Assembly (NCBI RefSeq): GCF_051903065.1
Contig: NZ_CP178438.1
DNA: 64,000 nucleotides
Source of the DNA: Escherichia coli
Lineage (GTDB): Bacteria > Pseudomonadota > Gammaproteobacteria > Enterobacterales > Enterobacteriaceae
Direction: 5' to 3' (one strand)
Shown here: positions 24,706 through 53,120 of the stretch, piece after piece
Position numbering within the stretch: position 1 is the stretch's first letter
Layout: each line of letters starts with the position of its first letter
The notes under the pieces: model-generated
The model's input: the letters and a program-made list of their open reading frames with translations, nothing else
Told to the model about the DNA's origin: nothing
Database searches by the model: none
Translations under genes and position numbers: made by a program

Positions 24706-27150
24706 TTACGCGGCTTCAACTTTCCGCACTTTCTCCGGCAACTTTACCGGCTTCGTCGCCAGCTCTTCCGGATCAAAGTCATCAACGTTAATACTGCGCA
24801 GACGGCTTTCTTCCGCTTTCACCAGAATAGCGGCTTCATCTTTATCAATCAGCCCCTTCGCCAGCGCGTTGTGCGCCAGTTCATCCAGACGGGTAAATGG
24901 CAGATTTTTACCCAGCTCTTTACAGATCCGCTGATGAATCGGGTCGGCGGCAATCACATCCACCAACGCCTCTTCCAGTAAACCAACCGGGTTATGCTCG
25001 CTTGGCGTCAGGTACTGACCGCGACCAATACGTGAACGAGTGGCGTTCGGCACTTGTAAAATCTTCGCCACTTTATGATCCAGCTTGTCAGACGGTGCCA
25101 GATAATGACGTCCGGTCGGGAAGATCACCACATTCAGCAGCCCGGCAACCACGCGGTTCGGGAAGTTTTGCAGTAAATCGTCCATCGCCTGTTCTGCCTG
25201 ATACAGCGCATCCTGTACGCCCCAGTGCACCAGCGGCAGATCGGCTTCATTACGGCCTTCGTCGTCATAACGCTTCAGAACGGCAGAGGCGAGGTAAAGC
25301 TGGCTTAAAATATCACCCAGACGTGCCGAGATACGCTCACGACGTTTCAGGCTGCCGCCCAGCACTGCCATCGAGACATCAGAAAGCAGGGCGAGGTTGG
25401 CGCTCAGGCGGTTCAGGTGCTGATAGTAGCGTTTAGTGGCATCGCCGGTTGGCGTGCTGCTGGTTAAACCGCGCGTCAGGCCCAGCCAGAAGCTGCGAAC
25501 TTTGTTGCTACCGACGTGACCGATATGTTTGAACAACAGTTTATCGAACGCGTTGACGTCATTGTTCTTCGCCGCTTCCATCTCTTCCAGCACGTACGGA
25601 TGGCAACGAATCGCTCCTTGTCCGAAGATCATCATGCTGCGGGTCAGAATGTTAGCCCCTTCAACGGTGATGGCAATCGGTGCGCCCTGGTAAGCACGCG
25701 CCAGGAAGTTGCTTTGCCCGAGCATAATGCCTTTACCGCCGGTAATATCCATCGCATCAATAATCGACTGCTGCCCGCGGTGGGTACAGTGATACTTAAC
25801 GATAGCCGACAGCACGGCAGGTTTTTCGCCGAGCATAATGCCGTAGGTAATCAGCGATGCCGCAGCATCCATTACATAAGCGTTCCCGGCAATACGCGCC
25901 AGCGGCTCTTCAATCCCTTCCATCTTACCGATAGAGATTTTGAACTGACGGCGAATGTGAGCATACGCGCCCGTTGCCAGCGCTACCGATTTCACGCCGC
26001 CGGTTGAGTTGGAAGGCAGGGTGATGCCGCGGCCTACCGAGAGGCACTCCACCAGCATCCGCCAGCCTTGCCCGGCCATTTTGGGTCCGCCGATGATGTA
26101 ATCGATCGGTACGAAGACATCTTTACCGCGCGTCGGTCCGTTCTGGAAAGGTACGTTCAGCGGGAAGTGGCGACGACCAATTTCCACGCCCGGCGTGGTG
26201 GTCGGGATCAGCGCACAGGTAATACCTAAATCTTCTGCACCACCCAGCAATTTTTCCGGGTCGGAGAGTTTAAACGCCAGACCAAGCACGGTCGCAATCG
26301 GTGCCAGCGTAATGTAGCGTTTGTTCCAGGTCAGACGCATCCCCAGCACCTGCTGGCCCTGCCATTCACCCATGCAGACAATCCCGGTATCCGGGATAGC
26401 GCCCGCATCGGAACCCGCTTCCGGGCTGGTTAGTGCAAAGCAAGGGATTTCCTGACCACGCGCCAGACGCGGCAGATAGTGATCTTTCTGCTCGTCAGTG
26501 CCGTAATGTTGCAGCAGCTCGCCCGGGCCTAATGAGTTCGGCACGCCGACGGTAATCGCCAGGATCCCGCTCACGCCGGAGAGTTTTTGCAGCACGCGAG
26601 ACTGGGCATAAGCCGAGAACTCCAGCCCGCCGTACTCTTTTTTGATGATCATCGCGAAGAAACGATGCTCTTTAAGGTACGCCCACAACTCCGGCGGCAG
26701 ATCCGCCAGCTCATGAGTAATCTGGAAATCATTCGCCATCCGGCAGGCTTCTTCTACCGGGCCGTCGAGAAACGCTTGCTCTTCAGCGGTCAGGCGCGGC
26801 TGCGGATAGTTATGCAGCTTTTTCCAGTCCGGCTTGCCCTGGAACAAGTCGCCCTCCCACCAGGTGGTGCCCGCATCAATCGCTTCTTTCTCAGTGCGCG
26901 ACATCGGCGGCATCACCTTACGGAAACCGCGAAATACCGGCGCGGAAATCATCGACTTACGCATAGGCGCAAAGTTAAATGGCACGAGGATAATGGCCAG
27001 AGGCACCAGTACCCACACCGACCACAGACCAGCAACGCCGAGGGCGGCTGTCCAGGCGAGCAAAATCAGACTGCTGATAAATAAGCTCACGCGGTGATAG
27101 AACAACGCGCCGAGCAGGACAACCGTAGCGAGAATACTCAAAATCATCAT
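24706..27150 (-). CDS. fadE: Acyl-CoA dehydrogenase FadE
   Basis: Track ORF is 840 aa; start trimmed to [11 protein letters not shown] (814 aa) by comparison with the known FadE N-terminus. Confidence 0.95.
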
Positions 27151-27968: not shown

Positions 27969-28130
27969 GTCTGGCGTAGGCCGGATAAGACGTTTACGCC
28001 GCATCCGGCAATTGTGCACCGATGCCTGATGCGACGCTGACGCGTCTTATCATGCCTACAAATCTGTACGCGAACCGTAGGCCGAATAATGCGTTCACGC
28101 CGCATCCGACCTGAAAATTCTTAAATCAAT
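27969..28130. repeat. REP/BIME cluster
   Basis: Repeated palindromic units GCCGGATAAG...GCCGCATCCGGCA and GCCTGATGCGACGCTGACGCGTCTTATCA. Confidence 0.85.
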
Positions 28131-30558: not shown

Positions 30559-31308
30559 ATGTCCTTGCCATCGATTCCATCCTTTGTATTGTCGGGATTA
30601 CTGTTGATTTGTTTGCCGTTTTCTTCATTTGCCAGCGCCACCACATCACATATCTCTTTCAGCTACGCCGCCCGCCAGCGGATGCAAAACCGTGCGCGTT
30701 TATTAAAACAGTACCAAACCCATCTGAAAAAGCAGGCCAGCTATATTGTGGAAGGCAATGCCGAAAGCAGAAGGGCGCTGCGCCAGCACAACCGCGAACA
30801 GATAAAACAGCATCCAGAATGGTTTCCTGCGCCGCTCAAGGCGAGTGACAGACGCTGGCAGGCGCTGGCGGAAAACAACCACTTTTTAAGCAGCGACCAT
30901 TTGCATAACATTACCGAAGTGGCGATTCACCGCCTGGAGCAGCAGCTTGGCAAGCCTTACGTCTGGGGCGGCACGCGGCCTGATAAAGGCTTTGACTGTA
31001 GCGGGTTGGTTTTTTATGCCTACAACAAGATCCTCGAGGCGAAGCTCCCGCGTACGGCTAATGAGATGTATCACTACCATCGGGCAACGATTGTGGCGAA
31101 TAACGACCTGCGCCGGGGAGATTTGCTGTTTTTCCATATCCACAGCCGCGAGATTGCCGACCATATGGGGGTGTATCTGGGCGATGGGCAATTTATCGAG
31201 TCGCCGCGTACGGGGGAAACCATTCGGGTAAGCCAGTTAGCAGAACCTTTCTGGCAGGATCATTTTTTAGGCGCGCGCCGGATTTTGACGGAAGAGACGA
31301 TTTTGTAG
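30559..31308 (+). CDS. yafL: NlpC/P60-family peptidase YafL
   Basis: NlpC/P60 Cys-His core (DCSGLVFYAY...HMGVYLG); start placed at MSLPSIPSF. Confidence 0.85.
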   Translation: MSLPSIPSFVLSGLLLICLPFSSFASATTSHISFSYAARQRMQNRARLLKQYQTHLKKQASYIVEGNAESRRALRQHNREQIKQHPEWFPAPLKASDRRWQALAENNHFLSSDHLHNITEVAIHRLEQQLGKPYVWGGTRPDKGFDCSGLVFYAYNKILEAKLPRTANEMYHYHRATIVANNDLRRGDLLFFHIHSREIADHMGVYLGDGQFIESPRTGETIRVSQLAEPFWQDHFLGARRILTEETIL

Positions 31309-31395
31309 GACGGATAAGGCATTCACGCCGCATCCGGCAGTTGTACGCAGGTGCCTGATGCGACGCTGGCGCGTCTTATCATGCCTACGAGCCCG
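31309..31395. repeat. REP elements (left of rayT)
   Basis: GGATAAGGCATTCACGCCGCATCCGGCA ... GCCTGATGCGACGCTGGCGCGTCTTATCATGCCTAC. Confidence 0.85.
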
Positions 31396-43535: not shown

Positions 43536-44789
43536 ATGCTTGAACAAATGGGCATTGCCGCGAAGCAAGCCTCGTATAAATTAGCGCAACTCTCCAGCCG
43601 CGAAAAAAATCGTGTGCTGGAAAAAATCGCCGATGAACTGGAAGCACAAAGCGAAATCATCCTCAACGCTAACGCCCAGGATGTTGCTGACGCGCGTGCC
43701 AATGGCCTTAGCGAAGCGATGCTTGACCGTCTGGCACTGACGCCCGCACGGCTGAAAGGCATTGCCGACGATGTACGTCAGGTGTGCAACCTCGCCGACC
43801 CGGTGGGGCAGGTAATCGATGGCGGCGTACTGGACAGCGGCCTGCGTCTTGAGCGTCGTCGCGTACCGCTGGGGGTTATTGGCGTGATTTATGAAGCGCG
43901 CCCGAACGTGACGGTTGATGTCGCTTCGCTGTGCCTGAAAACCGGTAATGCGGTGATCCTGCGTGGTGGCAAAGAAACCTGTCGCACTAACGCGGCAACG
44001 GTGGCGGTGATTCAGGACGCCCTGAAATCCTGTGGCTTACCGGCTGGTGCCGTGCAGGCGATTGATAATCCTGACCGTGCGTTGGTCAGTGAAATGCTGC
44101 GTATGGATAAATACATCGACATGCTGATCCCGCGCGGCGGGGCTGGTTTGCATAAACTGTGCCGCGAACAGTCGACGATCCCGGTGATCACAGGTGGTAT
44201 AGGCGTATGCCATATTTACGTTGATGAAAGTGCAGAGATCGCTGAAGCATTAAAAGTGATCGTCAACGCGAAAACTCAGCGTCCGAGCACATGTAATACG
44301 GTAGAAACGTTGCTGGTGAATAAAAACATCGCCGATAGCTTCCTGCCCGCATTAAGCAAACAAATGGCGGAAAGCGGCGTGACATTACACGCAGATGCAG
44401 CTGCGCTGACACAGTTGCAGGCAGGCCCCGCGAAGGTGGTGGCGGTTAAAGCCGAAGAGTATGACGATGAGTTTCTGTCATTAGATTTGAACGTCAGAAT
44501 CGTCAGCGATCTTGACGATGCCATCGCCCATATTCGTGAACACGGCACACAACACTCCGATGCGATCCTGACCCGCGATATGCGCAACGCCCAGCGTTTT
44601 GTTAACGAAGTGGATTCGTCCGCTGTTTACGTTAACGCCTCTACGCGTTTTACCGACGGCGGCCAGTTTGGACTGGGTGCGGAAGTGGCGGTAAGCACAC
44701 AAAAACTCCACGCGCGTGGCCCAATGGGGCTGGAAGCACTGACCACTTACAAGTGGATCGGCATTGGTGATTACACCATTCGTGCGTAA
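43536..44789 (+). CDS. proA: Gamma-glutamyl phosphate reductase
   Basis: 417 aa, matches ProA. Confidence 0.97.
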
Positions 44790-44903: not shown

Positions 44904-44979
44904 GCCGATATAGCTCAGTTGGTAGAGCAGCGCATTCGTAATGCGAAGGTCGTAGGTTCGACTCCTATTATCGGCACCA
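44904..44979 (+). tRNA. thrW: tRNA-Thr (anticodon CGT)
   Basis: GCCGATATAGCTCAGTTGGTAGAGCAGCGCATTCGTAATGCGAAGGTCGTAGGTTCGACTCCTATTATCGGCACCA; cloverleaf with CGT anticodon. Confidence 0.95.
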
Positions 44980-48958: not shown

Positions 48959-49426
48959 TTTGCTGCTCCTCATCATATCGACCCTGCAAGGTCGGTTAGT
49001 TTCTCCACAAAACAGAGAAGAACACCTGCGGTGACTGCCGCCCGGATGGATTGGGTTATGAGCCCGTCGTCCGGTGATGCTCTTCTCTGTTTTGTAAAAA
49101 GGACGGTACCAGCCGGAAGCAAGAGTACAAGCTGGTACCGCCAAGACTACACACAGCATAAAGTTGTGGTGCCGGGTGCCTCCCGGTGCCTGGCGAAGGT
49201 TGCACACCAGGCGGGTGGGTATCCACAGAAGGTCGACTGTCAGCCTCAACCTTAACCCGCGTGCGCTGAGCCGCATTCACCACAACGCTAAGGATTCTCT
49301 CTGGTTGAAAATACTTAGCTGTTATGTGCCTGCTTTTAGCCACATCAGGCGAGGTGGACCTAGTTATTCCCCAACAACAAGGATTCGGTTAATCTGGTTA
49401 TCCCCAACAACGCAAAAGGAAAAGAA

Positions 49427-49861
49427 ATGTCCGGTAATATCTATACGCTGTACAAATCCCACTGTGAAAATGTTGGAAAGTATCGGGGCATTGAAATCAG
49501 TGGGGTAGTGTCATCAGTCGAAATAAGCAAAGTTGAATCAAGGGCAACATTACTTACTCTTTTGGACCTTGTCTTACATGAGCACCGGAAGAAATTCGGC
49601 ACTCCCTATAATCAGTTGAATGGGAAAAAGGCTCTGGTTCACCTTATTCTGATGAAGCATCACTGGATGCCAAAACAGATTAATGAGATGAAATTTGATG
49701 AACTTCTTCTTTCAATTCAGGATGAACTCACACTTGATAAAATAAGCGTAACCGCCCAGAAATTTTTAGATTATCGAGACTGGAGATCACAAATTCATCA
49801 CTTTGATGATTTTGACGAAAATGAATGGGATCCTAATTTGTCTGCACAATATCTAAAGTAA
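49427..49861 (+). CDS. Hypothetical protein (AT-rich moron, opposite to the leftward operon)
   Basis: 144-aa ORF with AAAGGAAAAG RBS region; tandem 34-nt-spaced repeats upstream and a terminator downstream. Confidence 0.55.
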   Translation: MSGNIYTLYKSHCENVGKYRGIEISGVVSSVEISKVESRATLLTLLDLVLHEHRKKFGTPYNQLNGKKALVHLILMKHHWMPKQINEMKFDELLLSIQDELTLDKISVTAQKFLDYRDWRSQIHHFDDFDENEWDPNLSAQYLK

Positions 49862-50039
49862 CATCCTGTGATAAAACCGTGATTTCCTGATCCAGTTTTT
49901 TTAAGGAGTCTATTGTTTCCTGTCGATAAGACAGCACTTCACGAAGCTGGTTTATAGCTGCCAGCTTCTTTGTCATCCACTCATAAATTTCCTCATCTGT
50001 GTAGCCAGGCGCGACGATTTTGGGTTCTGTTTTGTGCAT
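49833..50039 (-). CDS. Hypothetical small protein, first gene downstream of the putative pL
   Basis: 68 aa from ATG 50039 (MHKTEPKIVAPGYTDEEIYEW...) with AGGAG 7 nt upstream; 3' end overlaps the convergent 49427 gene by 29 bp. Confidence 0.4.
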   Translation of the reverse strand: MHKTEPKIVAPGYTDEEIYEWMTKKLAAINQLREVLSYRQETIDSLKKLDQEITVLSQDVTLDIVQTN

Positions 50040-50078
50040 TTCACATCTCCTCAAGTTATCAGTTACTTGTTGATGGGG

Positions 50079-50106
50079 ACCAGATTGTTAAAGAGCTAAG
50101 CGTCCT
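50079..50106 (+). terminator. Rho-independent terminator-like hairpin (plus strand)
   Basis: GCGTCC-tgta-GGGCGC followed by TTTTTT. Confidence 0.5.
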
Positions 50107-50188
50107 GTAGGGCGCTTTTTTGTTGCTAACGAATCATCCTGGACTTCATATGCTCCAGGCGGCTACTTCGTGGGCGTCCTGCCTGTTC

Positions 50189-50227
50189 GTTGTTTCGCTT
50201 GGGTACATTATGTATCTCAAAGGTACA
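50189..50227 (-). promoter_or_regulatory. Putative pL/OL: leftward promoter with GTAC-containing operator half-sites
   Basis: Minus-strand TTGACA (50223-50218), 17-nt spacer, ATAATG (50200-50195); GGTACAT motifs at 50191 and 50211 resemble the OR palindromes. Confidence 0.5.
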
Positions 50228-50233
50228 TTGTCA

Positions 50234-50257
50234 AGTATAAAAAAACCTGCCGAAGCA
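50234..50257 (-). terminator. Terminator of the repressor transcript
   Basis: Minus-strand AACCTGC-ttcg-GCAGGTT followed by TTTTTTT, just downstream of the cI stop. Confidence 0.6.
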
Positions 50258-50273
50258 GGTTCATAAACATTGA

Positions 50274-50948
50274 TTAGGCTTTGATTTTGTATCTTCTTGG
50301 TTTTCCTGAGAAAATCACTGTACCAATTATAGAGCAATTACCGTTGATCTTAATGTAAGGCTCAGGCCAGTTTGGGTTTAACGCTTTGAGATAACGCTGT
50401 GTCCCATCTTCTATCAACCTTTTGAAGGTGGTTTCGCCTGTATCGTGCATCAATGCAATAACGTCGTCACCGTGGCAGGCAGGTACTTCAGGATCGACAA
50501 AAATCATGTCTCCCGGGCGGTACTCATCAATCATTGAATCACCTATCACCCGCAAGATATAAGTCATTTCCCCACAGGGTACAGGGCAGGGATACGTTTC
50601 TGCTGTGCTCAAATCAACCTCAGAATATCCAACTTCTTTCCATGCTCCGGCCTGTACCCATGATATGACAGGGACTAATGTGATTTGTTTATTAGTGATT
50701 GAAACATCAGGTTTTTTTGTGATGTTCGTTGTCTGGTGTTCTTGATCGAGCCATCCGACAGGCAGGTCGAAACATTTTTCGATGTGTCGTGCCATGCTGT
50801 CACCGATATTTTTAGTAGCACCATCTCCCATAAACCTGCTGGTCTGGGTTGGCTCGCGATCAATCATAGTGGCAAAGGAAGAATTCCCGCCAACACCATC
50901 TCTCAGTTTTCTGGCGTTAGACCGCCGGATGTCATGGATTGTTTTCAT
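50274..50948 (-). CDS. cI: Phage CI-type repressor (HTH plus S24 LexA-like peptidase domain)
   Basis: 224 aa; C-terminal S24 motifs (GDSM...K); ATG has no upstream RBS, consistent with a leaderless transcript. Confidence 0.85.
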   Translation of the reverse strand: MKTIHDIRRSNARKLRDGVGGNSSFATMIDREPTQTSRFMGDGATKNIGDSMARHIEKCFDLPVGWLDQEHQTTNITKKPDVSITNKQITLVPVISWVQAGAWKEVGYSEVDLSTAETYPCPVPCGEMTYILRVIGDSMIDEYRPGDMIFVDPEVPACHGDDVIALMHDTGETTFKRLIEDGTQRYLKALNPNWPEPYIKINGNCSIIGTVIFSGKPRRYKIKA

Positions 50949-50962
50949 AACGAAATTAAAAC

Positions 50963-51033
50963 CCTTGTACCGTTAAGGTACAAGTATCTTGAAGGTTCAT
51001 TTCAATCATGTAATATGTACACCGGAGGTACAT
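50963..51033. promoter_or_regulatory. OR region: two palindromic operators and the rightward promoter
   Basis: CTTGTACC-gttaa-GGTACAAG (50963-50983) and ATGTAC-accggag-GTACAT (51015-51033); TTGAAG-16-TAATAT promoter at 50987-51014. Confidence 0.65.
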
Positions 51034-51038
51034 ATTGT

Positions 51039-51239
51039 ATGAAAGCGTATTGGGACTCTTTAACCAAAGAACAGCAGGGCGAGTTGGCCGGAAAAGTTGG
51101 CTCAACACCTGGCTACTTACGGCTGGTTTTCAATGGCTATAAAAAAGCCAGTTTTGTGCTGGCTAAAAAACTTGAGCAATGCACGTCAGGTGCAATTACG
51201 AAATCTGACTTAAGACCGGATATCTATCCGAAAGATTAG
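51039..51239 (+). CDS. cro: Cro-like HTH repressor
   Basis: 66 aa from ATG 51039 with GGAGG RBS (MKAYWDSLTKEQQGELAGKVGSTPGYL...). Confidence 0.75.
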   Translation: MKAYWDSLTKEQQGELAGKVGSTPGYLRLVFNGYKKASFVLAKKLEQCTSGAITKSDLRPDIYPKD

Positions 51240-51270
51240 CAGAACACTTTCAATTTTTAACCACAGAACG

Positions 51271-51834
51271 ATGAGGCTAACCGTGGGTAAGCATCACTGG
51301 AAAATAGAAAAACAGCCTGAGTGGTACGTGAAAGCTGTCAGAAAAACTATCGCGGCGTTGCCGGGTGGTTACGCTGAAGCGGCTGACTGGCTCGATGTAA
51401 CAGAAAACGCTTTATTCAACCGCCTTCGTGCAGATGGCGATCAGATTTTCCCGCTGGGATGGGCAATGGTTTTACAGCGTGCTGGTGGCACTCACTTCAT
51501 TGCTGATGCTGTGGCGCAGTCTGCAAATGGCGTCTTTGTGTCTCTTCCTGACGTCGAGGATGTGGACAACGCCGATATCAACCAACGCCTGCTGGAAGTC
51601 ATTGAACAGATCGGCAGTTATTCAAAACAGATTCGTTCAGCAATTGAAGACGGTGTAGTGGAACCGCATGAGAAGACAGCAATTAACGATGAGCTGTACC
51701 TCTCAATTTCGAAGCTGCAGGAGCATGCAGCACTGGTCTACAAAATCTTTTGCGTTTCAGAAAGTAGTGACGCCCGCGAGTGTGCAGCTCCGGGCGCCGT
51801 GGCGTGTCGTGACTGTGGAGAAACTAACGCATGA
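51271..51834 (+). CDS. Phage CII/YdaT-like regulatory protein
   Basis: 187-aa ORF directly after cro. Confidence 0.5.
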
Positions 51835-52189
51835 ACAGTTTAACAACACACTACCGTCGCTCGCAACTGATTGCGCTTCCTGTACCGGGTGGAAAAGCGA
51901 AGGTGGAGTATTGCTATGCAGTAAATGTACCAGGTGACAGGGAAATTGTAACCCACAGCTTTGCAGAGTGGGCTGTGGGTGATTTCAACCGGCAGAAGGA
52001 GACAGTCCTTTGCGACAAGTTAACCGCTGGTTCAAAGATCACTACGGAGTGCCCGTCAGAGTCATTCGTTGGGAGCCGGAAACACAACGGGTTATCTACC
52101 TCCGTGAAGGCTATGAGCATGAGTGCTTCAGCCCGCTCGAACAGTTTCGTCGTAAATTCAGGGAAATAGAGGTCGGTCATGAGCACTAA
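51831..52189 (+). pseudogene. Phage gene with an apparent single-base frameshift in a T-run
   Basis: Frame 0 ([10 protein letters not shown]...QKETVL) is protein-like up to about 52010; frame 2 from 52010 ([59 protein letters not shown]) is protein-like and ends abutting the next gene. Confidence 0.5.
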
Positions 52190-53120
52190 ATTAACCGGCT
52201 ATGTATGGGATGGTTGCGCTGCGTCAGGCATGAAATTATCCAGCGTGGCAATTATGGCCCGCCTGGCTGATTTCAGTAATGACGAAGGTGTGTGCTGGCC
52301 ATCAATTGAAACCATTGCCCGTCAGATTGGCGCGGGGATGAGTACCGTCAGAACGGCTATCGCACGGCTGGAAGCAGAAGGCTGGTTAACGCGTAAGGCG
52401 CGTCGCCAGGGTAACCGCAATGCGTCGAATGTTTATCAGCTTAACGTTGCGAAGCTTCAGGCAGCGGCATTTTCTCAACTGTCAGATTCTGACCCGTCAA
52501 AATCTGACGCATCAAAATCTGACCCGTCAAAATTTGATGCGTCGAAATCTGGCAAAAAAGCGGGTTTTCACCCGTCAGAATCTGGCGGGGATCCGTCAGT
52601 AAAATCAAAACATGATCCGTCAGATAAAAAAACTTCTCGTCCGGACGCTTCGCAACCGGACACGCAGACGGCTGAACAGGAGTTTTTAACTCGCCATCCT
52701 GATGCGGTTGTATTCAGCCCTAAAAAGCGCCAGTGGGGAACGCAGGATGATTTGACCTGCGCACAGTGGCTCTGGAAAAAAATCATCGCCCTGTACGAGC
52801 TGGCCGCCGAATGTGACGGCGAGGTGGTTCGTCCCAAAGAACCGAACTGGACAGCCTGGGCAAACGAAATTCGCCTGATGTGTGTGCAGGATGGTCGTAC
52901 TCACAAACAAATCTGCGAGATGTACAGCCGCGTCAGCCGCGATCCGTTCTGGTGCCGTAACGTGCTCAGCCCGTCGAAGCTGCGGGAAAAATGGGATGAG
53001 CTTTCCCTGCGCTTATCGCCGTCCATCAGCACATACACAGAAAAACGCGAAGACCCGTATTTCAAATCCAGTTACGACAACGTGGACTACAGCCAGATCC
53101 CGGCAGGATTCAGGGGGTGA
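52179..53120 (+). CDS. Phage replication initiation protein (lambda O-like) with internal iterons
   Basis: 313 aa; N-terminal winged-helix region, repeat-encoded Ser/Asp/Lys-rich linker. Confidence 0.7.
   Translation: MSTKLTGYVWDGCAASGMKLSSVAIMARLADFSNDEGVCWPSIETIARQIGAGMSTVRTAIARLEAEGWLTRKARRQGNRNASNVYQLNVAKLQAAAFSQLSDSDPSKSDASKSDPSKFDASKSGKKAGFHPSESGGDPSVKSKHDPSDKKTSRPDASQPDTQTAEQEFLTRHPDAVVFSPKKRQWGTQDDLTCAQWLWKKIIALYELAAECDGEVVRPKEPNWTAWANEIRLMCVQDGRTHKQICEMYSRVSRDPFWCRNVLSPSKLREKWDELSLRLSPSISTYTEKREDPYFKSSYDNVDYSQIPAGFRG
52485..52625 (+). repeat. Iteron array, candidate phage origin of replication
   Basis: Tandem imperfect repeats (GACCCGTCAAAATCTGAC / GCATCAAAATCTGAC / CCGTCAAAATTTGATGCGTCGAAATCTGGC / CCGTCAGAATCTGGC / TCCGTCAG). 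Confidence 0.65.

Follow-up and report, generated by a model that had tools for sequence, protein, structure and literature searches.

The closest described relatives of the module considered here are the e14 element of Escherichia coli K-12 and phage SfV. The SfV genome record (GenBank U82619.2, deposited with Allison 2002) carries a 'putative operator region' annotated at 26377-26445, and no N gene has been reported for SfV or SfIV, unlike lambda. In K-12, dRNA-seq placed the transcription start of the e14 repressor gene ymfK on the A of its ATG, which corresponds to a leader of 0 (PMC4681348 Table S3); a second table of the same study places it 1 nt upstream, and the dataset lists no forward-strand start for PR in K-12 (PMC4681348), a result that fits repression in the lysogen. 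The e14 gene ymfM, downstream of cro, encodes an SOS-inducible, LexA-independent division inhibitor, the control of which its authors attribute to CohE. Within the literature searched, which did not extend to Allison 2002 (SfV) and Mehta 2004 (e14), there was no binding, footprint or ChIP experiment with YmfK/CohE or YmfT on the sites predicted below; the gSELEX and iModulon papers only list these genes, as do the available parts of the Reg-Seq preprint.

A lambdoid-like switch that has been dissected experimentally is PaaR2/YdaS/YdaT of prophage CP-933P of strain O157:H7, the repressor gene of which is leaderless (PMC8630535). Like the module described here, it has analogues of Cro (of the YdaS family) and of CII (YdaT), and its palindromic operators lie over divergent PRM and PR promoters and again at PL, with both regulators footprinting one common region (PMC8630535). 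PaaR2 is said to be without sequence similarity to lambda CI (PMC8630535), and at only ~15 kDa it is too small to accommodate an S24 domain, unlike the repressor described below. The CP-933P operators are four 18-bp palindromes at equal intervals, with the half-site GTTTAGTAA, and the repressor operon encloses a toxin-antitoxin pair.

The present locus lies in a 64-kb stretch of E. coli DNA (the window) and very probably represents the OR/PRM/PR region of an SfV/SfIV-like prophage with an e14-type module, a matching OL/PL region 0.75 kb leftward and a lambda-like CI/Cro switch. Positions 50949-51038 exactly fill the space from the start codon of the repressor gene (ATG at 50948, minus strand) to that of cro (ATG at 51039). 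This intergenic region together with both start codons forms a 96-bp stretch that is identical at 96 of 96 positions to the ymfK(cohE)-ymfT(croE) stretch of K-12 e14, and the region is 98-99% identical to SfV, SfIV, PhiR29/R49, cdtI, Ayreon, 2H10 and Stx2c phages. The operator region annotated in SfV corresponds to window positions 50965-51033, from the first to the end of the second of two palindromes described below. The module is thus not new: the repressor DNA-binding domain and the operators are near-identical to those of the e14/SfV immunity group, the control region is ordinary and already described, and a match was present in 2162 of the 5426 complete E. coli genomes (~40%), covering 80% or more of the query in 1323 of these.

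The prophage that carries the module is not the 15-kb e14 remnant; it adjoins tRNA-Thr(CGT), and its aligned regions are ~97% identical to SfIV. One base differs from e14 in the predicted operator OL2 and another in the left flank of this site. Compared with SfV, the spacers of the two palindromic operators differ (GATAG in SfV versus GTTAA here, and TATCG versus ACCGG), the left half of the second is TGTAT rather than TGTAC, and different genes follow the cII-like gene. A sequence-only reading of this DNA had proposed that the region defines the immunity specificity of the prophage and that it be compared with known lambdoid immunity groups. The comparison places it in the e14/SfV group by identity (repressor 224/224 to YmfK, intergenic region 100% to e14). 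The word 'defines' may nevertheless be incomplete because SfV is reported to have a second immunity system, based on transcription termination (Roberts, Allison and Verma 2007).

The genes of the module are as follows.

50274 to 50948, minus strand: cI-type repressor gene, 224 aa, product identical to K-12 YmfK/CohE at 224 of 224 residues and to SfV cI at 223 of 224
51039 to 51239, plus strand: cro-like gene, 66 aa, product identical to K-12 YmfT/CroE at 65 of 66 residues and to SfV Cro at 66 of 66
51271 to 51834, plus strand: gene for a cII-like regulator (YmfL homologue), Pfam Phage_CP76 with E 1.4e-13, 176 of 187 residues identical to K-12 YmfL

The C-terminal domain of the repressor matches Pfam Peptidase_S24 (E 1.5e-26) and aligns with that of lambda CI, such that FKRL lies over lambda FKKL, the motif with the catalytic Lys. 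Its motifs include VQAG at residues 98-101 (Ala100-Gly101 cleavage), GDSM at 136-139 (Ser138) and FKRL at 175-178 (Lys176), and the N-terminal domain holds a helix-turn-helix with the recognition helix PTQTSRF at residues 33-39. The cro-like protein is labeled in RefSeq as 'YdaS family helix-turn-helix protein', and its Pfam scores for YdaS_toxin (25.1 bits) and HTH_3 (16.9 bits) are both below the cut-offs; it matches the PDB Cro chains 8co2/8c7k with E ~0.01. The gene order is that of a lambdoid switch, with a Cro-type helix-turn-helix gene divergent from the repressor gene and followed by a cII-type gene, and the module further shares with such switches an S24 repressor and dyads of one consensus over the divergent promoters and again at the leftward early promoter.

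Three promoter-like elements and a terminator were assigned around the repressor gene.

50955 to 50983, minus strand: PRM-like promoter of the repressor gene, -35 TTGTAC (50983-50978), 17-bp spacer, -10 TTTAAT (50960-50955)
50989 to 51016, plus strand: PR-like promoter of cro, -35 TTGAAG (50989-50994), 16-bp spacer, -10 TAATAT (51011-51016)
50207 to 50234, minus strand: PL-like promoter, TTGACA-16-CATAAT, 11/12 in the consensus scan
50243 to 50262, minus strand: intrinsic terminator after the repressor gene, found by terminator scan, with an equivalent annotated in SfV and Ayreon

PR and PRM each match the consensus at 8 of 12 positions, below the threshold of the promoter scan, and were read from the sequence. 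In the PRM-like promoter, 6 nt separate the -10 element from the A of the repressor ATG (50948), which is the predicted +1 and coincides with the measured ymfK start. The Hafnia and both Pseudomonas relatives retain the AAT of this -10 element at six nt from the ATG, and an alignment gap makes the distance seven nt in Edwardsiella. No Shine-Dalgarno sequence occurs within 12 nt upstream of the repressor ATG, in agreement with the sequence-only reading, and the leaderless repressor mRNA that was guessed from this had already been shown experimentally, because the K-12 ymfK start maps on the A of the ATG (leader 0) in identical DNA over the 96-bp stretch. The PR start is predicted at ~51021-51024, just before the cro Shine-Dalgarno sequence. 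The corresponding PR geometry is TTGAAG-16-TAATAT in Hafnia, TTGCAG-16-CATAAT in Edwardsiella and TTGACG-17-CATCCT/CATGAT in Pseudomonas.

Two perfect palindromes between the divergent repressor and cro genes had been recognized from the letters, and both are real. Palindrome 1 (CTTGTACC-GTTAA-GGTACAAG) occupies 50964-50984 with its center at 50974; palindrome 2 (ATGTAC-N7-GTACAT) occupies 51015-51033, with perfect arms that reach ATATGTAC/GTACATAT (51013-51035) and a center at 51024, and the cro Shine-Dalgarno sequence GGAGG (51024-51028) lies inside it, as had been noticed. The tetranucleotide GTAC is not over-represented overall (180 observed versus ~250 expected). The pattern TGTAC-N7-GTACA with at most one mismatch has four matches in the 64-kb window versus 0.9 expected, a number reached in 0 of 100 shuffles; the two perfect matches are palindromes 1 and 2, and the two with one mismatch lie at the putative PL (50211-50227) and at 43772, outside the prophage. 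On sequence, the two palindromes are not of two types but are both instances of one predicted 17-bp operator, TGTACC-N5-GGTACA. Seven sites match at least 10 of the 12 positions of this consensus in the 64 kb, and the four best all lie in the two control regions that flank the repressor gene. These four and one weaker candidate make up the predicted operators.

50966 to 50982: OR-a, OR3-like predicted operator, TGTACCGTTAAGGTACA, 12/12, within the full perfect palindrome 50964-50984
50983 to 50999: OR-b, candidate weak operator, AGTATCTTGAAGGTTCA, 9/12, with a putative function
51016 to 51032: OR-c, OR1-like predicted operator, TGTACACCGGAGGTACA, 11/12, within the perfect palindrome ATATGTAC-N7-GTACATAT at 51013-51035
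50211 to 50227: OL1, predicted operator, TGTATCTCAAAGGTACA, 11/12, filling the spacer between the -35 and -10 elements of PL
50191 to 50207: OL2, predicted operator, TGTTTCGCTTGGGTACA, 10/12, 20 bp from OL1 as a direct repeat

OR-a covers the -35 element and spacer of PRM, with its center at -26, and OR-c spans the last base of the PR -10 element, the predicted start and the cro Shine-Dalgarno sequence. The similar half-sites that had been proposed at the putative pL are present there as two copies of GGTACATT (50201-50208 and 50221-50228), 20 bp apart. OL1 is conserved in SfV, Ayreon and Hafnia and is perfect (TGTACCGCATGGGTACA) in Edwardsiella EPP-1; OL2 covers the last base of the PL -10 element and the start predicted at ~50200, and its Edwardsiella counterpart, TGTATCTTATAAGTACA, has a better left half.

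A third, weak operator is probably present between the palindromes at 50983-50999, judging from its sequence. OR-b overlaps the PR -35 element, with its center 43 bp upstream of the PRM start. Sites matching at least 9 of 12 positions number 27 in the 64 kb, and the chance of one fitting the gap is ~0.006-0.007. In the Pseudomonas phages, the counterpart AGAACCTTGACGGTACA matches at 10 of 12 positions in an equal position, and the CTTG..GGT.CA columns are invariant. The palindrome TTGAA-N7-TTCAA at 50989-51005 was considered as a third site at lambda-like spacing (~23-27 bp) and was rejected for its mismatched half-site; 50983-50999 was preferred because of its GGTTCA half-site and its Pseudomonas counterpart. 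The distance between the centers of OR-a and OR-b, 17 bp here and 16 bp in Pseudomonas, is awkward for two dimers side by side.

Given that TGTA...TACA superficially resembles the LexA half-site pair CTGT...ACAG and that e14 functions are SOS-inducible, the palindromes could be host LexA (SOS) boxes, or they could be chance GTAC palindromes, but either reading is barely credible. CTGT-N8-ACAG with at most one mismatch has no match in 49800-51400, the TGT/ACA triplets are 11 bp apart here and not 8, and LexA-independence has been reported for the e14 division inhibitor. The shuffles, and conservation that reaches as far as Pseudomonas, rule out a chance origin.

That conservation was traced in Hafnia yong2, Edwardsiella EPP-1 and the Pseudomonas phages 5400 and D14E, the repressors of the latter two being 59% and 55% identical to the present one in the N-terminal domain. 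All these relatives have unchanged half-sites (GTACC/GGTACA) with differing 5-bp spacers, and the operator positions relative to both start codons are kept. Across eight aligned regions, the half-sites of OR-a are invariant and its spacer is variable, and GGAGGTACA of OR-c is invariant in all eight. In the 3.2-kb Pseudomonas loci, perfect operator sites occur in the intergenic region only. Part of the conservation among the enterobacterial relatives is plain shared ancestry, given their closeness. The P. aeruginosa phages (5400/CF3a and D14E/LESphi3) have in common with the present module the consensus TGTACC-N5-GGTACA, the three-site layout, a cro Shine-Dalgarno sequence GGAGG within the operator spacer, an equal distance from the -10 element to the repressor ATG and a matching recognition helix, PTQVSR; the C-terminal parts and linkers of their repressors differ.

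These alignments also bear on whether the palindromes act as RNA hairpins, the first by terminating or attenuating leftward transcription into cI and the second by sequestering the cro Shine-Dalgarno sequence and AUG. The terminator scan did report 50984-50964 on the minus strand, followed by GGTTTTAATT, the predicted RNA folds of palindromes 1 and 2 reach -13.1 and -14.2 kcal/mol (z -3.7 and -4.0 versus shuffles), and the inverted repeat of palindrome 2 can be lengthened to arms of 15 nt, which take in the cro ATG. However, the equivalent of palindrome 1 in Hafnia is, at -6.0 kcal/mol, no more stable as RNA than its shuffled versions (z -0.86), and the T-run that follows palindrome 1 is absent in Hafnia, Edwardsiella and Pseudomonas, so that a Rho-independent terminator was rejected for this element. 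It is the half-site sequence itself that is conserved, with no compensatory changes, which is a signature of protein recognition, and the half-sites recur at PL as imperfect dyads unable to form good hairpins. With the PR start near 51023, the left arm of palindrome 2 falls outside the cro mRNA. Each lineage has extended arms, but their position varies, and AT-rich sequence (the -10 box on one side, the spacer between the Shine-Dalgarno sequence and ATG on the other) flanks palindrome 2, making the extra symmetry weak evidence; the 15-nt arms were thus not retained as a larger element or hairpin. An Rfam scan of 50949-51038 found no known RNA family. Overall, a role as RNA hairpins is very improbable, and the palindromes are best read as protein-binding operators.

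Whether both regulators use these operators is a separate matter. The dyads might bind one regulator only (e.g., Cro/YmfT) or another factor, with the CI-type repressor using a different or larger element. The recognition helices of CI (PTQTSRF) and Cro (YdaS-type) differ, and the flanks differ systematically, being ...GGTACAAG at OR-a and ...GGTACAT(T/A) at OR-c, OL1 and OL2, a difference hinting that two proteins may discriminate between sites. Against this, the operators change together with the recognition helix of CI from lineage to lineage: those with PTQ(T/I/V)SR helices all have GTAC operators, and H-19B (PSQLTQ) and mEp043 (PSYVSR) have different palindromes at the equivalent place. 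Furthermore, the dyads are also found on PL, which CI must repress. To our knowledge, CI and Cro share operators in every lambdoid switch that has been studied. The same has been shown for PaaR2/YdaS in CP-933P (PMC8630535). Use of the dyads by one regulator only, or by another factor, is accordingly improbable.

In the proposed switch, dimers of the CI-type repressor would recognize the 17-bp TGTACC-N5-GGTACA dyads through the helix-turn-helix, with PTQTSRF as the likely recognition helix. PR would be blocked by repressor bound to OR-c (51016-51032), since this site takes in the -10 end, the start point and the cro ribosome-binding site, and PL by repressor bound to OL1 (50211-50227) and OL2 (50191-50207). 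OR-a (50966-50982) would mediate negative autoregulation by the repressor, since it covers the -35 element and spacer of PRM, as well as shut-off of repressor synthesis by Cro. OR-b (50983-50999) would be a weak middle site at -43 of PRM, overlapping the PR -35 element; in lambda, CI at OR2 activates PRM from a matching position. PRM transcription would start on the A of the ATG, as shown in K-12 with identical DNA, yielding a leaderless repressor mRNA. Upon induction, RecA-stimulated self-cleavage at Ala100-Gly101 by the Ser138/Lys176 dyad would remove the repressor, as suggested by the motifs and by the known SOS-inducibility of e14 functions, and PR would then express cro (YmfT-like), the cII-like gene and downstream genes.

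Much of this layout is like that of lambda, including divergent cI and cro genes, 17-bp dyads with an odd central base, predicted operators over PR, PRM and PL, an S24 repressor of the self-cleaving type, leaderless cI mRNA, a cII-type gene after cro and a candidate middle site that, like OR2, lies ~42-43 bp upstream of the PRM start. The lambda operators have TATCACCGC-type half-sites, and there is no similarity between the operator sequences of lambda and those found here. OR consists here of two strong sites 50 bp apart, with the candidate third matching at 9/12 (10/12 in Pseudomonas), versus three sites at 23-24 bp in lambda; contrary to lambda intuition, the best consensus match is on PRM and not PR. 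The center of OR-c is at about +1 of PR versus -17 in lambda, the starts of PR and PRM are ~75 bp apart versus 83 bp, OL has two sites 20 bp apart, unlike lambda, and the CII-like protein belongs to a CP76/YdaT-like family and not that of lambda CII.

Because the sole 12/12 operator lies on the PRM -35 element and the candidate activating site is only 16-17 bp away, and because there are just two sites at OL and an operator contains the cro ribosome-binding site, the switch may depart from lambda logic, although we consider this rather doubtful. Tight negative autoregulation, or a Cro-first lock-out of the leaderless repressor message, could then take the place of OR1-OR2 cooperativity with positive autoregulation. 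Conservation of this layout extends from Enterobacteriaceae as far as Pseudomonas.

As a discovery, the module is minor: it is found in ~40% of complete E. coli genomes, its operator stretch was already marked in the annotation of the SfV genome (Allison 2002), and the leaderless transcript of its repressor gene was mapped in 2014. The present analysis provides the explicit predicted operator consensus TGTACC-N5-GGTACA with a five-site map and the pairing of PTQxSR helices with GTAC operators, which holds in phages of enterobacteria, Stx2c- and Cdt-converting ones among them, through to those of Pseudomonas. The consensus and the pairing could help to predict homoimmunity among E. coli prophages and to interpret the K-12 'YmfT iModulon'. 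If the switch does follow a logic other than that of lambda, one of the commonest prophage switches of E. coli would be an uncharacterized variant of the paradigm.

By sequence comparison, the immunity module is assigned to the e14/SfV group of the lambdoid CI/Cro class. From the ATG of a leftward gene (50948) to that of a rightward gene (51039), the intervening DNA is precisely 50949-51038, and the genes of the module are as follows.

50274-50948, leftward: repressor ORF, 224 aa, Peptidase_S24 domain (E 1.5e-26)
51039-51239, rightward: cro ORF, 66 aa, small helix-turn-helix protein, sub-threshold YdaS/HTH_3 matches
51271-51834, rightward, next after cro: cII-like gene, Phage_CP76, 'regulatory protein CII' family

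The repressor is alignable with the lambda CI C-terminal domain and contains VQAG cleavage (Ala100-Gly101), GDSM (Ser138) and FKRL (Lys176) motifs, while Cro weakly matches two chains of solved structure named 'antirepressor Cro'. Identity of the region is 98-99% with Shigella phages SfV and SfIV and E. coli phages PhiR29/PhiR49, and ~96% with cdtI, Ayreon, 2H10 and a dozen Stx2c-converting phages. It matched in 2162 of 5426 complete E. coli genomes under the annotation ymfK/ymfT/ymfL, which denotes the immunity region of e14, a cryptic prophage of K-12. Over the 96 bases that span both start codons, identity to K-12 is 100%; the repressor is identical to YmfK (CohE) at 224/224 residues and to SfV cI at 223/224, and Cro to YmfT (CroE) at 65/66 and to SfV Cro at 66/66. 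The SfV record (U82619.2) carries a 'putative operator region' feature at 26377-26445, which the cI offset places at 50965-51033 here, from palindrome 1 to the end of palindrome 2. In the accessible literature, no experiment on DNA binding or footprints of YmfK/CohE or YmfT was found, and work from 2020 on ymfM, the division inhibitor encoded downstream, still termed CohE control 'possible' or 'likely'. Within 40000-64000, the aligned 53% is ~97% identical to SfIV, and similarity to SfIV/SfV/SfII starts at ~44.9 kb (about 44935), beside tRNA-Thr(CGT) at 44904-44979 (+), consistent with a prophage inserted at that tRNA gene.

Both perfect palindromes described by the sequence-only reading are present between the divergent genes: CTTGTACC-GTTAA-GGTACAAG at 50964-50984 (palindrome 1) and ATGTAC-N7-GTACAT at 51015-51033 (palindrome 2), the perfect arms of the latter reaching ATATGTAC/GTACATAT at 51013-51035. 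They are one kind of site, not two, sharing TGTAC-N7-GTACA with GTAC cores 11 bp apart. Allowing one mismatch, this pattern occurs four times in the window versus 0.9 expected, a count reached in 0 of 100 shuffles; the perfect copies are palindromes 1 and 2. GTAC itself is not enriched across the window (180 observed, ~250 expected). Only seven 17-mers in 64 kb match TGTACC-N5-GGTACA at 10/12 positions or better, four of them at 50966 (12/12), 51016 (11/12), 50211 (11/12) and 50191 (10/12). In the region that the sequence-only reading called pL lie a one-mismatch copy (50211-50227) and the 10/12 site (50191-50207). Another of the seven, TTTCCCCACAGGGTACA at 50567-50583 (10/12), lies inside the repressor coding sequence and also occurs in SfV (L001 1940-1956); it is probably a chance match.

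Predicted promoters and operators are arranged as follows.

PRM, minus: -35 TTGTAC (50983-50978), 17 bp, -10 TTTAAT (50960-50955), 6 nt, then the A of ATG 50948
PR, plus: -35 TTGAAG (50989-50994), 16 bp, -10 TAATAT (51011-51016); start predicted at 51021-51024
PL, minus, 50234-50207: TTGACA, 16 bp, CATAAT, 11/12 consensus; start predicted at ~50200
OR-a, 50966-50982: palindrome 1 site, over PRM -35 and spacer, centre at -26
OR-b, 50983-50999: candidate third site, AGTATCTTGAAGGTTCA, 9/12, overlapping PR -35
OR-c, 51016-51032: palindrome 2 site, over the last base of PR -10, the predicted start and the Shine-Dalgarno
OL1, 50211-50227: occupies the PL spacer
OL2, 50191-50207: 20 bp from OL1, over the predicted PL start

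PR and PRM each match the promoter consensus at 8/12 positions, under the scan threshold. The PR start would fall directly before the cro Shine-Dalgarno GGAGG (51024-51028), which lies inside OR-c, in agreement with the proposed overlap of the second palindrome with the cro ribosome-binding site. OR-b is centred 43 bp before the PRM start, where lambda has OR2; with 27 sites of at least 9/12 in 64 kb, the chance of one in its 33-bp gap is ~0.006-0.007. Round OR-c, an inverted repeat with 15-nt arms (51006-51042; 87% complementary) would set the cro ATG opposite a CAT from the PR -10 region. Every lineage shows some symmetry outside the 17-bp core of OR-c, but these extended arms carry little weight because the flanks are AT-rich and positions shift between lineages.

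Distant relatives in the phage collection were Hafnia yong2 (~70% DNA identity), Edwardsiella EPP-1 (~65%), and Pseudomonas phages 5400 and D14E (59% and 55% identity in the N-terminal domain). Invariant in an eight-sequence intergenic alignment were GTACC and GTACA of OR-a, TGTA and GGAGGTACA of OR-c, CTTG..GGT.CA (PR -35 plus an OR-b half-site), and the ATT forming AAT of the PRM -10; the 5-bp operator spacers vary by lineage (GTTAA, GATAG, GCGTT, AAATT, AGAAA, TAAAA). The Pseudomonas loci have perfect TGTAC-N7-GTACA only in the intergenic region, with a middle site (AGAACCTTGACGGTACA, 10/12) better than OR-b here, and at OL the Edwardsiella phage carries OL1 without a mismatch and OL2 with one, also spaced by 20 bp. 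Separately, the deposited repressor CDS boundaries of EPP-1 (L004 1044-1778, opening 66 nt ahead of the conserved ATG 1712, within the operator region) and yong2 (L003 1050-1607, starting 120 nt downstream of the conserved ATG 1727) look wrong.

That the palindromes act instead as a terminator or RNA hairpin gains some support from a terminator scan, which lists palindrome 1 (minus strand) as terminator-like, and from the good folding of both palindromes as RNA. However, the Hafnia counterpart of palindrome 1 folds poorly (z -0.86), the T-run after it is not kept in relatives, the PL sites are poor hairpins, and what is conserved is sequence rather than pairing; for palindrome 1 this reading was rejected. 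A LexA box reading was likewise rejected, as no LexA box is present. Alignment of N-terminal domains related the recognition helix to the type of repeat in the cI-cro gap.

e14/SfV group, Hafnia, Edwardsiella, Pseudomonas: helix IDRE(P/A)TQ(T/I/V)SR, GTAC-type palindromes
H-19B (~41% identical): helix GVSPSQLTQ, ATAAAT-type repeats
mEp043: helix EREPSYVSR, TTACC-N4-GGTAA

Such co-variation would be expected if the repressor helix-turn-helix reads GTAC half-sites. Use of the dyads by Cro alone, or by CI alone, is a less likely alternative; one hint that sites are told apart lies in their flanks, ...GGTACAAG at OR-a against ...GGTACAT(T/A) at the three lytic-promoter sites, in the enterobacterial relatives too.

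The 'apparently leaderless' repressor gene has direct support from K-12, where dRNA-seq revealed only five leaderless mRNAs, ymfK among them (Romero et al., 2014; PMC4681348). Table S3 of that study gives gene start 1202156, TSS RVS-1202156 and leader 0, and its TSS list gives 1202157, one base off. Because the DNA is identical to K-12, the leaderless start is established for this sequence, and the PRM geometry is as expected for a start on the A of the ATG, matching the measured TSS. In the relatives, too, a -10-like hexamer ending with AAT precedes the repressor ATG, at a distance of 6 nt in Hafnia and the two Pseudomonas phages and of 7 nt in Edwardsiella, so that a leaderless repressor message is probably common to the family. 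The K-12 TSS list also includes two leftward starts (U00096.2 1203046 and 1203132, reverse) near the ymfL 3' end and ymfM start, antisense to the early-right operon and at ~51830-51930 here, approximately, because indels separate the cII-like genes of the two sequences; one of these starts could come from a PRE-like promoter that establishes repressor synthesis.

In the proposed mechanism, repressor dimers on OR-c, OL1 and OL2 would silence PR and PL, OR-a would serve autorepression and/or Cro-mediated shut-off of PRM, and OR-b may activate PRM. SOS-triggered self-cleavage of the repressor would derepress cro, the cII-like gene and downstream genes, a step that fits the SOS-inducible, LexA-independent behavior of the e14 division inhibitor. 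That these operators define immunity may be only part of the picture, since SfV is reported to have a further immunity system based on termination.

Other features of the window include a full-length, sub-threshold Rfam STnc100 match at 49093-49316 (-) (43.4 bits versus a gathering score of 47; E 2.5e-7), containing a weak DicF-like segment (49101-49155). Here the leftward (PL) operon has ~450 nt of non-coding DNA, its long ORFs, which overlap on both strands, looking spurious; by analogy with DicF in Qin, the match may be a prophage sRNA. At 52488-52551, a 15-bp unit (TCTGACCCGTCAAAA) is repeated 4.3 times in tandem within a 313-aa HTH_36/DnaD_N-like ORF (52179-53120); the repeats look like replication-origin iterons embedded in an initiator gene, an arrangement seen in lambda O. 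Two Rfam naRNA4 matches (REP-derived nucleoid-associated RNA) fall in host DNA of the window, at 27979-28056 and 31308-31385 (+).

The closest experimentally dissected analogue, PaaR2 of CP-933P (PMC8630535), has YdaS/YdaT-type partners and a leaderless repressor, although its operators are unrelated and its repressor is too small for an S24 domain. The module would work like lambda OR/OL; in contrast to lambda, the operator sequence is unrelated, two strong OR sites lie 50 bp apart, OL has two sites and the cII gene is of CP76/YdaT type. The finding of an immunity region is correct but already known, and what remains noteworthy is that the strongest predicted site is placed unlike lambda's, the best match lying on PRM.
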